From: a virus
Lineage: Duplodnaviria > Heunggongvirae > Uroviricota > Caudoviricetes
IMG/VR virus record: IMGVR_UViG_2721755720_000005
DNA: 40,305 nt
Strand: one strand, 5' to 3'
This document shows positions 32,313-36,834 of this stretch, piece by piece (the stretch's first letter is position 1; every line of letters starts with the position of its first letter). A model generated the notes under the pieces. It was not told the origin of the DNA. It saw only the letters and a program-made list of their open reading frames with translations, and ran no database searches. The position numbers and the translations under genes were made by a program.

Positions 32313-32321
32313 TGATATTCA

Positions 32322-32345
32322 GAAGGCCTTCCGGCCTTCTTTATT
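32322..32345. terminator. Hairpin terminator between convergent fibre and tail-fibre-assembly genes
   Basis: 7-bp GC stem GAAGGCC/GGCCTTC with 4-nt loop, followed by TTTATT; overlaps the minus-strand stop codon. Confidence 0.55.
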
Positions 32346-32916
32346 ACTGTGGCTGCTCAGGCCATTTAATGGCGTTAAATTCAGCTTCAGTTTTAATGGC
32401 GGGTAATACCATTTTTTTCACCTGACTGATGTATGCCATCCATCGTGCCAGTGCTGCTCTGTCTTCATCACTGATGGTGCCCAGTTGTAGTTCTGTTCTC
32501 CAGTCATTAATTTGTTCATATGCCTGATTAAGATATGACTGGCGCAGTTCTTCCGCTTTTTTGTCGTAATTGACCGGAAGCCGTGAGATGATGCCATTAT
32601 CAAACTTCCAGTTTCCTGAAATATCAGTGCCTTCAGGGTGTTCGTCTGTCTCAACCACGGAAAATCCCGCAGGATACAGCGCCGAGGCGTCCTGTGATAT
32701 TGAGCAGATAACGCCGCTGTCAGGTGTTATACAAAGTTTATATTTTTTGGTGAATAATGGCAGGGACTCATAGAAATCCTTACCATCATCACTCTGAAAA
32801 TACTGTACATCATTACCATAGGGTTTGTGTTCCGGGTAATATCGTTTAACATTAATCAGTTGCATAAACATCACCATGTAAATCAATGATAAAAACAGGA
32901 ACAATACTATTGCCAT
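32344..32916 (-). CDS. Tail fibre assembly (Tfa/U-like) protein, opposite strand to all tail genes
   Basis: C-terminus ...DEDRAALARWMAYISQVKKMV...AIKWPEQPQ follows the Tfa C-terminal pattern; atypical hydrophobic N-terminus and no clear SD; start uncertain. Confidence 0.6.
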   Translation of the reverse strand: MAIVLFLFLSLIYMVMFMQLINVKRYYPEHKPYGNDVQYFQSDDGKDFYESLPLFTKKYKLCITPDSGVICSISQDASALYPAGFSVVETDEHPEGTDISGNWKFDNGIISRLPVNYDKKAEELRQSYLNQAYEQINDWRTELQLGTISDEDRAALARWMAYISQVKKMVLPAIKTEAEFNAIKWPEQPQ

Positions 32917-33169
32917 ATACAGGCAAGGGGTTTCTGAAATAACGCATATTTTCAGGTGCTGAACGCAGCGTCATGAATCGTTAAATCAATTATAAGCCGG
33001 TAATATGCGGTTATCGTATTGGCCTGTCCATTCTTTGTCGTTATGTTCCTGCCTCACCGGCTCCGTCACGAAAAGTACTGTGACGCTTTTTTTGAATTTC
33101 CGCAAAACACATATTTATCAGCGGTTGTTATTCTGACTCTGTTTAATTCAGAAACAGGCAGAAAAGACG

Positions 33170-35239
33170 ATGTCAGACTCCCAGTGGAAAATGCTCTCCG
33201 CCATGCCCGGAGAGTTTTCAGTCAAGGTTGCCGGTGGCACGGTGGCATTTATTGAAAGTCCTTTCAGGCCTTCGGGTAATAAAGGGGGGATCACCTTCGC
33301 AGACTGCGTGATCCGCTTCAGCACGAAAGAGCCATTATGGATAATGCCGGTATCCGGTAATCCCAGTGCAGAAATCACCAGTTCAGGCGTGACCGGCATC
33401 ATTCCGATTACAGCTGACGTGGCCGGAACACTCACGCCCTCCGACTGGAATGCACCGGATAACGCCGGGCCTTCCGGCAGCACGAATGGCAGTACCACAG
33501 AGCCGGAGTATTACTATGTGATCCCACTGGCGGGACAATCAAATGGCATGGCCTATGGTGAAGGGCTTCCGTTACCGGATTCATTTGACCGCCCGGACCC
33601 ACGGATTAAGCAACTGGCACGCCGCAGCACGGTCACGCCCGACGGTACGTCGTGTACATATAACGACATCATTCCGGCAGATCACTGCCTGCATGATGTT
33701 CAGGATATGAGCGGGATAAACCACCCGAAAGCTGATCTGGCAAAAGGCCAGTACGGGACTGTCGGTCAGGGGCTGCATATTGCCAAAAAACTGCTGCCTT
33801 ATATCCCGCAGAATGCCGGGATACTTCTGGTGCCCTGTTGCCGTGGTGGGTCAGCATTTACCACCGGGGCGGACGGTTCATTCAGTGAGGCCAGCGGTGC
33901 TTCCGCTGATTCTTCACGCTGGGGAGTTGGTAAACCTCTGTATCAGGACCTGGTAAGTCGTACCAGAGCGGCGCTGGCGAAGAACCCGAAAAACAAACTT
34001 CTGGCTGTGGTCTGGATACAGGGAGAAGCAGACCTTGCATCGGGAAGTCAGCAGCATAATGGTTTATTCACGACCATGGTTCAGCAGTTCAGAACTGACC
34101 TGTCTCCGCTTGCTGCGCAGTGTGTGAGTGGAAATGCCACCATGGTGCCGTGGATTTGTGGTGATACCACGTATTACTGGAAAAACGCTGGCACCGATAA
34201 ATATGAGGCGGTATACGGTGGCTACAAAGGCAAGGAAACTCAGAATATTTTCTTTGTACCGTTCCTGACGGATGAGAATGGACAGAACACGCCAACGAAT
34301 GCTCCGACGGAAGATCCGGATATTGTGGCTGTCGGGTATTACGGTGCGGCATCCCGTACCCAGGGCAGTTTTGTCTCGACACAGCGTGACAGCCATTTCA
34401 GCTCATGGGCACGCAGGGGCATTATTTCAGACCGTCTGGCCTCAGCCATTCTGCTCCATGCGGGACGCACACCTGAAGTGATGCAGGGACCGGTTGTGAC
34501 ACAGCCGGATGAAAAACCATCACCTGACACGCCATCAACACCATCGCCGGATACACCGTCCACACCACCGGCTGACACCACGACGATGAGCGCGTTGCTT
34601 GCTTACCGGGCATCAGAGTCTGAAGGACAACTGGCACCACAGGGCTGGACTGCCGGTGGCGGCAAGGCTCAAATTGTGGATGATGCCGGAGCCAGCGGGG
34701 GTAAGGCCATGAAACTGACCAAGGAAACAGGTAAATCCTCCTGGTACCTTGAACATGATGCCGGTAATGGTGCCGACCTGCTGGGTAAAGGCGGCCTTGT
34801 CAGCTGCCGGTTTAAGGTTGACGGCACACTGACGGCTAATCAGTACGCACTGGCGCTGTACTGGCCGGTTTCGGCTCTGCCGCAGGGCGTCTCACTGGAA
34901 GGTAATGCCGGTCATAACCTGCTGGCATCGTTCTACGTACAGAGCGATGCCACAGACCTTAACGTGATGTATCACAAAGGAAGCACGGCGCAGAACACGA
35001 AGCTGGGGTCATTCGGCGCATTTGATAATGAGTGGCATACGCTGGGCTTCCGTTTTGCCGGTAACAACAGTATTGAGGTGACGCCGGTCATTGATGGTAA
35101 GGACGGGACACCATTCATGCTGTCGCAGTCACCTGTCGGTTCTTTTGCGGCAGACAAGTTACGCATGACCGATATCACTAACGGTGCAACATACCCGGTG
35201 CTGATTGACAGCATTGTGGTGGAAGTGAATAACGCGTAA
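33170..35239 (+). CDS. Multi-domain cargo protein: SGNH/sialate-O-acetylesterase-like domain, Pro/Thr linker, lectin-like C-terminal domain
   Basis: 689 aa; motif YYYVIPLAGQSNGMAYGEG (GQSN block of the SASA/SGNH esterase family); linker PSPDTPSTPSPDTPSTPPADTT; beta-rich C-terminal domain. Confidence 0.8.
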   Translation: MSDSQWKMLSAMPGEFSVKVAGGTVAFIESPFRPSGNKGGITFADCVIRFSTKEPLWIMPVSGNPSAEITSSGVTGIIPITADVAGTLTPSDWNAPDNAGPSGSTNGSTTEPEYYYVIPLAGQSNGMAYGEGLPLPDSFDRPDPRIKQLARRSTVTPDGTSCTYNDIIPADHCLHDVQDMSGINHPKADLAKGQYGTVGQGLHIAKKLLPYIPQNAGILLVPCCRGGSAFTTGADGSFSEASGASADSSRWGVGKPLYQDLVSRTRAALAKNPKNKLLAVVWIQGEADLASGSQQHNGLFTTMVQQFRTDLSPLAAQCVSGNATMVPWICGDTTYYWKNAGTDKYEAVYGGYKGKETQNIFFVPFLTDENGQNTPTNAPTEDPDIVAVGYYGAASRTQGSFVSTQRDSHFSSWARRGIISDRLASAILLHAGRTPEVMQGPVVTQPDEKPSPDTPSTPSPDTPSTPPADTTTMSALLAYRASESEGQLAPQGWTAGGGKAQIVDDAGASGGKAMKLTKETGKSSWYLEHDAGNGADLLGKGGLVSCRFKVDGTLTANQYALALYWPVSALPQGVSLEGNAGHNLLASFYVQSDATDLNVMYHKGSTAQNTKLGSFGAFDNEWHTLGFRFAGNNSIEVTPVIDGKDGTPFMLSQSPVGSFAADKLRMTDITNGATYPVLIDSIVVEVNNA
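34517..34564 (+). repeat. In-frame tandem repeat, 2 x 24 bp, encoding PSPDTPST twice (interdomain linker)
   Basis: Two consecutive 24-bp units, same amino acids with synonymous and near-synonymous differences. Confidence 0.6.
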
Positions 35240-35382
35240 GCAGGATAAAAAAATGCCGCCGGAAAAGGGAAAACAAGGAAACCGGCGGCAAAGGTCGTCA
35301 CATCTAAAGCAAAAATGCAGGACGCCTTTTTAACCAACAGGTATTAACAATGTCAACACCATGTCAATAATGGAGATGAATA

Positions 35383-35855: not shown

Positions 35856-35861
35856 CAATAC

Positions 35862-35887
35862 AAACCGGCAGTGTCTCCTGCCGGTTT
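35862..35887. terminator. Bidirectional hairpin terminator between convergent genes
   Basis: 10-bp stem AAACCGGCAG/CTGCCGGTTT with 6-nt loop, A-run on the 5-prime side and T-run on the 3-prime side. Confidence 0.5.
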
Positions 35888-35976
35888 GAGTTTCATGGGG
35901 GGGCAATACTGAAATGATACCTGTTCTTGTCATGTTTATGGCATTTCTTATATGGCCTTATATAATCCTCAATGTT

Positions 35977-36504
35977 TTATTCTGCTGGACGATAGATATT
36001 AAATGATTCAATTTTGTTAGTGGAGGTGTTAAACGCGCATTCATATTTCATTTTTATTTTTACCCCAAAGTCGTTTGTAAAAGTCACTTTATCACCAATA
36101 TATCTAATAATTGGATTATCATTCTTGTAGCTGTAAGTATCGAAAATCTCCCCCATAAACCCACCATGGAACTCGTACGGTTTTCCACTGGCAGCATTAA
36201 TGATAAGTTTTTTGCATTGATAAATTGCCTCTCTTTCATATTTTGAGCTAAGGCATTCAAAGTCATTGTTCTTGCATATATTTTTTTGCTCTTGTGTTGC
36301 ATTTTGTGTGTCTTCCTGGCCATCTTTTTCAGAATCAGGCCAGAACCACCATATTGTCAACCCGAGAAACACTGCTAACTTGATGATATTAATACACCAC
36401 TCAACACATCCAACGCCTTCTGGTGCGTTATGTCCGCAATAGGGGCATTTTTGTTGCCCTGCTGGAATCTGCATCCGACAGTGACGACAATGAACCAAAG
36501 CCAT
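35977..36504 (-). CDS. Zinc-ribbon membrane protein, function unknown (AT-rich cargo gene)
   Basis: ATG at 36504 inside ORF 35977-36582 (which starts at TTG); CRHC-x15-CPYC zinc ribbon, one TM helix, about 110-aa C-terminal domain; low GC versus neighbours. Confidence 0.65.
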   Translation of the reverse strand: MALVHCRHCRMQIPAGQQKCPYCGHNAPEGVGCVEWCINIIKLAVFLGLTIWWFWPDSEKDGQEDTQNATQEQKNICKNNDFECLSSKYEREAIYQCKKLIINAASGKPYEFHGGFMGEIFDTYSYKNDNPIIRYIGDKVTFTNDFGVKIKMKYECAFNTSTNKIESFNIYRPAE

Positions 36505-36834
36505 TTTTCTCTCTCTGATACAAAATTTAAACAGGCATGTCTGTTTTACAGGAGGTCGGGAATAACATCGGATATGCAACAAACCTAAAGTAAAACATTG
36601 ATGCGAATTATCCTAAATTGCCCCCGGCGCACTTTCCACTATCAAGGGCAACTGTATGTAGAATCATCTTGATACGCGCGCGATCGTACCGTTAGCTACC
36701 AAAAAGTCAACAAAATGATCAATTTATACTCACTTCAACCTGCAAAATCCTTGCTCTCTTTGCACAAATAATCCCCACCCTGAATCATTGTTGATGACTT
36801 TTCAATCTATTTGTTGTATCAATTAAACAAATCA

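Follow-up and report, generated by a model that had tools for sequence, protein, structure and literature searches.

Gene layout of the interval

The stretch analysed here, IMG/VR virus record IMGVR_UViG_2721755720_000005 (40,305 nucleotides, referred to at its full length as the window), is a Mu-like transposable Escherichia coli prophage, with ner and the transposase genes A and B at 177-3505, followed by baseplate genes, and with its right end at 37922. The subject of this analysis is the interval between the tail fibre gene S and the com and mom genes, which holds five open reading frames (ORFs): a tail fibre assembly gene of the Tfa/U' type, a gene for a NanS-p-type sialate 9-O-acetylesterase homologue, two small genes encoding DUF1378 and DUF826 proteins, and a gene for a zinc-ribbon membrane protein. 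An earlier note, made from the DNA letters and a list of ORFs, had proposed that these genes are separately acquired morons that replaced the invertible G segment and the gin invertase gene of phage Mu. All five ORFs are present where that note had placed them, with the strand switches it described, and each has a family match. Comparison with related prophages points, with high confidence, to three independent parts in the interval: a fibre switch disabled by a deletion, a nanS-p cassette, and a hypervariable slot (Table 1).

For two of the genes the ORF extends beyond the probable start codon. The Tfa ORF reaches 32916, but its homologues begin at the ATG at 32865; the zinc-ribbon ORF opens at a TTG at 36582, but the likely start is the ATG at 36504, which gives a 175-amino-acid (aa) protein identical to the publicly called one. 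The longer starts were rejected as read-through into relic sequence. The fibre gene S is collinear with annotated 882-bp fibre genes in relatives.

The shifts in composition reported in the earlier note are seen in the G+C profile, with 55% in the phage backbone, 43% in Tfa, 55% in the esterase gene, equal to the backbone, and 38% in the zinc-ribbon gene. Hairpins are found at three gene boundaries (32321-32340, 33064-33085 and 35861-35888), but the total of terminator-like sites was not above that of shuffled controls (10 versus 6.8 +/- 2.6). Rfam and tRNA scans of 31300-38000 returned no match.

Table 1 Features of the window from the tail fibre gene to mom
Feature	Position	Strand	Evidence or remark
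Tail fibre gene S	31431-32312	+	phrog_1833 E=1e-139; constant part Sc, then variable C-terminal Sv after the crossover site
Left crossover site (gixL-like)	31948-31973	.	TTATCGATAACA-TC-GGTTTACGGGAA, inside S
GC-rich hairpin between convergent S and Tfa	32321-32340	.	Likely two-way terminator
Tfa/U'-like tail fibre assembly gene, 173 aa	32344-32865	-	Caudo_TAP PF02413 E=3.9e-18; phrog_136 E=7.6e-54
Decayed 3' stub of alternative fibre end S'v, ~66 bp	32952-33017	-	Left side of deletion junction; collinearity with STEC299
gin 3' remnant, 64 bp (last ~21 codons and stop)	33017-33080	+	Right side of deletion junction
Hairpin and T-run, former gin terminator	33064-33085	+	Conserved in NCCP15648 (L002)
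NanS-p-type sialate 9-O-acetylesterase homologue, 689 aa	33170-35239	+	SASA and DUF6645; phrog_143 E=3.5e-296
DUF1378 small membrane protein, 60 aa	35383-35565	+	PF07125 E=7.6e-34
DUF826 protein, 84 aa	35601-35855	+	PF05696 E=3.4e-15; phrog_311 E=3.2e-28
Hairpin, 11-bp stem, between convergent DUF826 and zinc-ribbon genes	35861-35888	.	
Zinc-ribbon/one transmembrane helix/periplasmic 4-Cys domain protein, 175 aa	35977-36504	-	
Relic of 5' part and upstream region of relatives' slot gene (phrog_26524 type)	36537-36793	-	
com	36903-37103	+	Zn_ribbon_Com E=3.3e-12; annotated in relatives
mom	37057-37794	+	Mom E=1.9e-77; with com (36903-37794), right boundary of the variable region

Relatives that carry gin and the esterase cassette

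A megablast search was used to compare positions 31300-37900 with 5,426 complete E. coli genomes, of which 22 cover at least 80% of the query. A recombinase is annotated in the interval in 24 of the 30 best-matching E. coli genomes. In NCCP15648 (locus L002) and AST198 (L003), the genes run in the order fibre (+), Tfa (-), partial S'v (-), recombinase (+), DUF6645 (+), DUF1378 (+), DUF826 (+), a small gene (-), com and mom. STEC299 (L015) has the same order up to DUF826, where the stretch examined ends, and an Sp18-type prophage (L016) shares it but has a C5 DNA methyltransferase gene instead of mom. Because the esterase, DUF1378 and DUF826 genes lie directly downstream of gin in these relatives, the cassette coexists with gin and is not its replacement, contrary to what the earlier note had proposed; gin itself was lost separately, through a deletion of ~870 bp that has left stubs.

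The wider group to which the window belongs is that of the Sp18-type Mu-like prophages, represented by Sp18 of O157:H7 Sakai and by the Mu-like insert in the Shiga toxin (Stx) phage records LC727895 and LC727881, whose genes follow the same order as those of the window from the baseplate region to the right end. Tfa (-), the esterase gene (DUF6645), DUF1378, DUF826, a minus-strand slot gene and com are common to both; unlike the window, most Sp18-type prophages carry gin and S'v, and their slot gene is different. Judged by this gene order, nanS-p, DUF1378 and DUF826 are a conserved part of the E. coli Mu-like (Sp18-type) phage group. In some Sp18-type E. coli prophages and in a Salmonella Mu-like prophage, com is kept but a C5 DNA cytosine methyltransferase gene replaces mom (L016 7890-9096; L005 8630-9827), so that the translational activator com appears to be retained in those relatives while the modification enzyme after it is exchanged.

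Deletion in the invertible fibre segment

The window is collinear with NCCP15648 over 31300-32887 (L002 3001-4587), and the blastn match restarts at 33017, which corresponds to L002 5563, 67 bp before the gin stop codon. With STEC299 it is collinear over 32351-33017 (L015 3092-3764), a stretch comprising Tfa, the spacer between Tfa and S'v, and the last ~72 bp of S'v; from 33017 onward the window continues with the last ~61 bp of the STEC299 gin gene, where the match restarts at L015 4635. Foreign DNA was considered as the origin of the 129 bp at 32888-33016 and rejected, as these bases are the Tfa-S'v spacer and S'v 3' end of a STEC299-type relative. On these alignments, the difference from gin-bearing relatives is one clean deletion of ~870 bp with its junction at 33017, which took away ~90% of gin along with its promoter, as well as the right crossover site and the 5' part of S'v.

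The earlier note had found no recombinase ORF, and this was confirmed. When the Gin protein of a relative was searched against the whole window by tblastn, the sole match was to its last 28 residues (162-189) at 32994-33077 (E=9e-5); the window contains no intact serine recombinase, and none of its ORFs matches Pfam Resolvase. The left crossover site inside S, which that note had missed together with the S'v stub and the 64-bp gin remnant, aligns with gixL of NCCP15648 and, inverted, with its gixR (L002 4966-4991), which reads TTCCCGTAAACC-GA-GGTTTTCAGGAA. A search of the window for the gixR sequence of the relatives, with up to 3 mismatches allowed, gave no match, and no long inverted repeats are present in the interval. 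Of the two alternative fibre C-terminal exons, Sv is intact and S'v survives only as its decayed stub. Since both gixR and gin have been lost, the switch is locked in one orientation, and the description of the interval as non-invertible holds.

The sequence comparison shows an ancestral arrangement of Sc-gixL-Sv (+), Tfa (-) and S'v (-)-gixR, followed by gin. Since the deletion, Sc has been permanently joined to Sv, which leaves virions a single fibre type and fixes the host range. When the NCCP15648 junction was inverted in silico (Sc-gix-S'v with a co-directional Tfa), the product was matched in real genomes over a single stretch of 808 bp, at 99-100% identity in FORC_043, NCCP 13983, DLI.5a, TOE17 and STEC2018-553 and at 95% in a sixth genome, AST46. 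Sister strains such as FORC_029 show the opposite orientation. The occurrence of both orientations among relatives indicates that the switch of the window descends from a genuine phase-variable fibre system and has since been locked.

This system resembles the G segment and Gin of Mu (and also C/Cin of P1 and P/Pin of e14) in that the constant N-terminal part of the fibre ends at a gix-like site, TTATCGATAACA-TC-GGTTTACGGGAA. In the relatives of the window the likeness extends to alternative fibre exons and Tfa within the segment, gin directly downstream, and com and mom beyond; the window itself differs from Mu in the deletion of gixR, most of S'v and ~90% of gin, which leaves no inversion. 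The Mu segment holds two tail fibre assembly genes, U and U' (PMC4406740), whereas this phage group has one Tfa between two fibre ends.

Tfa in the locked state

Tfa occupies the same position in the gin-bearing loci L002, L003, L015 and L016, and this positional comparison identifies it as the chaperone gene native to the former invertible segment and not as a moron. It is convergent with S, adjacent to the fibre gene but not downstream of it. Between two gin-less lineages the ratio of nonsynonymous to synonymous substitution rates (dN/dS) of Tfa is 0.16 (dS = 0.22). Since the gene has stayed intact under purifying selection despite lying antisense to S, it probably has a promoter of its own and is still required.

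A single Tfa between the fibre ends is seen in NCCP15648 (L002 3649-4991), in L003, L015 and L016, and in the window (31948-33017); in the invertible form it is co-directional with the fibre gene in one orientation and antisense to it in the other. Both fibre ends share a C-terminal motif of the type YYRP(L/I)QYL(L/I)NG, which suggests that one chaperone may serve both. Locked variants such as this one offer a natural experiment on whether a single Tfa does so.

The NanS-p-type esterase cassette

The 689-aa protein is made up of a ~72-aa N-terminal beta domain, a linker, an SGNH/SASA esterase domain (residues 108-428), a Pro/Ser/Thr linker and a DUF6645 domain (474-688). Residues 108-428 match NanS (PDB 3pt5, E=1.5e-119; Pfam SASA, E=3.1e-12), and residues 474-688 match the lectin-like jelly-roll C-domain of NanS-p (PDB 6yp6, E=7.9e-101; DUF6645 PF20350, E=2.5e-68). 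The serine motif GQSN, within AGQSNGMAYGEG, and the histidine motif SH, within RDSHFSS, are conserved. With these motifs and the lectin-like C-domain kept, the enzyme is predicted to strip 9-O-acetyl groups from mucin sialic acids, as do the NanS-p enzymes of Stx phages, which de-O-acetylate Neu5,9Ac2 and mucin glycans and enable growth on them (PMC8065619). Esterase activity has been documented only for the Stx-phage and O104:H4 enzymes (PMC8065619). The protein of the window has no signal peptide, and the esterase would therefore work either attached to the virion or once the cell has lysed.

Stx phages carry the same module. Stx2 phage ASU11 has, in order, stx2AB, NanS-p, ORF B78 in the position of DUF1378, a 90-aa gene in the DUF826 position and the holin gene, and genes for DUF1378 and DUF826 have been noted between nanS-p and a gene designated S (PMC10462455), indicating that nanS-p, DUF1378 and DUF826 form one known module. 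The Stx-phage NanS-p proteins have homologous esterase and lectin-like domains, ASU11 NanS-p being 64% identical overall to the window protein, and likewise precede the DUF1378 and DUF826 genes. They differ in genomic setting: in Stx and lambdoid phages nanS-p comes after Q/stx and before the lysis genes, and in the transposable Mu-like myovirus of the window it is flanked by the gin remnant and com. The range of NanS-p-type esterases extends beyond lambdoid and Stx prophages. No description of NanS-p in Mu-like phages was found in the literature searched. In a comparison bearing on a possible Mu C-dependent late promoter, the sequences ahead of nanS-p, DUF1378 and com had no motif in common beyond chance words.

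The second difference lies at the N-terminus, where the Stx-phage proteins carry DUF1737 and the window protein has its unrelated beta domain and linker instead. PF08410 (DUF1737) has no match in the 689-aa protein, and residues 1 to ~100 cannot be aligned with Stx-phage NanS-p; PF08410 is present in nearly all other homologues of the esterase. Only two subtypes of the Mu-type N-domain occur in the database, that of the window and that of the Sp18 type, with ~57-60% identity over the domain. An AlphaFold2 model of this region, of moderate quality (pLDDT, the predicted local distance difference test score, 65), shows a beta-rich fold at residues 1-72 and a disordered linker at 76-111. In phage phi24B the DUF1737 of gp84, a NanS-p, is a capsid-decoration anchor (bioRxiv 10.64898/2026.04.10.717836), which makes the exchange of the N-terminal module in a different type of particle suggestive: the ~72-aa domain may have the corresponding anchoring role in a Mu-type particle.

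A role mainly in the particle, as an esterase/lectin for mucus or for O-acetylated surface glycans with the N-domain as attachment module, would then take the place of a metabolic benefit to the lysogen. The capsid-decoration role of phi24B gp84 speaks for this, as does the fact that exactly the DUF1737 domain is swapped in the Mu-type protein while the esterase and lectin domains are retained at ~64% overall identity to the Stx-phage protein; the position of the gene at the end of the tail/late block and the lack of a signal peptide are also in keeping with it. The N-domain, however, has no structural match to any virion protein and no paralogue in the window, and a terminator hairpin stands between the esterase gene and upstream transcription. 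We regard the particle-bound role as possible, though on balance doubtful. The exchange of the anchor domain in Mu-type phages gives a direct test of whether the esterase is displayed on virions in general.

The variable slot and its zinc-ribbon membrane protein

By comparison with relatives, the only truly variable slot of the interval is at about 35900-36536 (~640 bp, 37% G+C), with the DUF826 terminator on one side and the promoter region of mom on the other. Under the refuting condition that the earlier note had set, conservation within the phage group applies to four of the five genes. Window positions 35860-36534 have no DNA match in the 5,426 complete E. coli genomes. Relatives hold unrelated small genes in the slot, none of which has a Pfam family and one of which matches phrog_26524, of unknown function. 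The adjoining relic at 36537-36793 is 89.7% identical to L002 from 8853 onward, covering the partial minus-strand gene of that relative, and ~69% identical to Sp18-type prophages.

The zinc-ribbon protein is found in only 5 protein clusters among 5.8 billion. Exact copies of its gene occur only in E. coli carrying the same phage, and Salmonella homologues are 47-51% identical; the Salmonella cluster at 49%, whose contexts were read, lies at the end of a different Mu-like prophage, beside com and a C5 methyltransferase gene. An exhaustive HMMER search recovered 350 distant representative clusters. In 60 full-length members of the family, four cysteines of the zinc ribbon and four of the C-domain are invariant. 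In the AlphaFold2 model of the 175-aa protein (pLDDT 86), the zinc ribbon is followed by a transmembrane helix (33-54) and a disordered linker; the C-domain, a five-stranded sheet with one helix packed against it, has a generic cystatin/NTF2-like fold. PADLOC and NCBIfam scans, run on all eight proteins, gave no function for this one, and the C-domain has no Pfam model even across the 60 family members. The product of the slot gene is accordingly predicted to be a bitopic protein of the inner membrane, with its zinc ribbon in the cytoplasm and its cystatin/NTF2-like domain, which would contain disulfide bonds, in the periplasm.

In Edwardsiella, Trabulsiella, Providencia, Serratia and Buttiauxella, the genes for distant members run opposite to the late genes and are found next to tail-fibre genes or at the termini of P2/HP1-like prophages. 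Such a placement is typical of genes expressed in the lysogen, and the zinc-ribbon gene is most likely a moron of this kind. A hok/gef-type toxin gene adjoins the zinc-ribbon homologue at the prophage end in P2/HP1-like prophages of Trabulsiella and Serratia (L019 6610-6756; L021 7867-8019).

Membrane-anchored moron and superinfection-exclusion proteins of phages include HK97 gp15 and T4 Imm. The slot gene resembles these in that it encodes a small bitopic protein of the inner membrane and lies antisense to the late genes, next to tail genes or at the terminus of a prophage; no relationship to them in sequence or fold was found, and a zinc ribbon with a 4-Cys cystatin/NTF2-like domain is not described there. 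One could suppose that the protein is a superinfection-exclusion or defence factor at the inner membrane or periplasm. This agrees with the low G+C content of the gene and with its placement, which in Mu-like (E. coli, Salmonella) and P2/HP1-like prophages is always opposite the late genes and either terminal or next to tail-fibre genes, and variable loci of temperate phages are known reservoirs of anti-phage genes (PMC9122126). Against it, no function was returned by PADLOC, Pfam or NCBIfam, the cystatin/NTF2-like fold is generic, and the location fits any lysogenic-conversion function equally well. An exclusion function is therefore a tentative proposal and rather unlikely. We would place at the same low level the broader idea that the family (~350 representative clusters) consists of undescribed single-gene lysogen factors of Enterobacterales temperate phages, Mu-like and P2/HP1-like, that block superinfection at the envelope or at DNA entry. 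The family is a cheap candidate for prophage-encoded exclusion.

Between the slot and com there are four GATC sites (36682, 36717, 36839 and 36852), the last two in the palindrome AATCGATCGTTTTTGTCGATCGATT, and no other GATC occurs between 34317 and 39138. We take this cluster to be reminiscent of the Dam/OxyR-controlled mom promoter region of Mu.

Spread of the locked phage and readings of the interval as a whole

The gin-less junction was found in six complete genomes: M1, M3, JE86-ST02, JE86-ST05, S1-CAM-01-A and CI5. Over the 421-bp stretch around the junction the last four are 96.2-96.4% identical to the window, and over the wider 31300-35887 CI5 is only 91% identical. Copies 98.1-98.4% identical over 30000-37922, with the same junction, the zinc-ribbon gene and the same last base (37922), are present at two further chromosomal sites. 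A phage ~98% identical at three or more insertion sites looks viable as a locked type.

The genome of JE86-ST05 (NZ_AP022815.1, H16 and H64) contains a pair of related Mu-like prophages, of which the first has gin and the second the gin-less junction. Because gixR is missing, Gin supplied in trans could not rescue inversion of the gin-less copy; recombination between the two prophage copies is possible.

Several points weigh against reading the interval as a disabled switch, a nanS-p cassette and a variable slot. The signal of purifying selection in Tfa could have been produced by recombination with gin-bearing phages instead of by a function in the locked state. The activity of the esterase and its substrate are inferred from homology only. 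Sigma-70-like sites are no commoner in the region than in shuffled sequence, and no promoter was identified for Tfa, nanS-p or the zinc-ribbon gene.

The proposal of the earlier note, a new cargo or defence island of separately acquired morons inserted in place of the G segment and gin, starts from sound observations. Compared with Mu, the window has ~3.5 kb of additional genes between the fibre genes and com, the strand switches and composition shifts are real, and the zinc-ribbon cassette is lineage-specific and AT-rich, so that for this one gene separate acquisition stands. The idea fails for the rest: Tfa is part of the invertible segment, and the esterase gene, which has the G+C content of the backbone, lies with DUF1378 and DUF826 downstream of an intact gin in most relatives, while the stubs of gin and S'v flank one clean junction. 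Nor was the suggested defence function borne out, as no known defence family matches (PADLOC-DB v2, 0 families for 8 proteins at E<=0.01). An island of this kind is very unlikely. Mere decay in a defective, grounded prophage, in which the missing gin and the odd gene order would be biologically meaningless, could account for the stubs of gin, S'v and a slot gene but is about equally unlikely, since the remaining genes are all intact, Tfa shows the low dN/dS given above, near-identical copies with exact ends occupy three or more chromosomal sites, and the junction is common to lineages as far apart as CI5 and the window.

For annotation, the three-part reading means that an apparent new island in place of gin is a deletion-locked fibre switch beside a conserved cassette. 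The region is mostly ordinary and offers two modest leads, namely the family of zinc-ribbon membrane proteins and the exchanged N-terminal domain of the esterase.

Right end of the prophage

The prophage right end, ...AATCGCCGCGCTATA with its last base at 37922, interrupts a type I restriction hsdR gene. The remainder of hsdR in the window (37922-40305) contains SWI2/SNF2, T1R_D3 and EcoR124_C parts and lacks the N-terminal nuclease region; the insertion probably knocked out the type I restriction activity of the host. The terminal bases are ...TA, not the ...CA of Mu, and are shared across 8 independent insertions.

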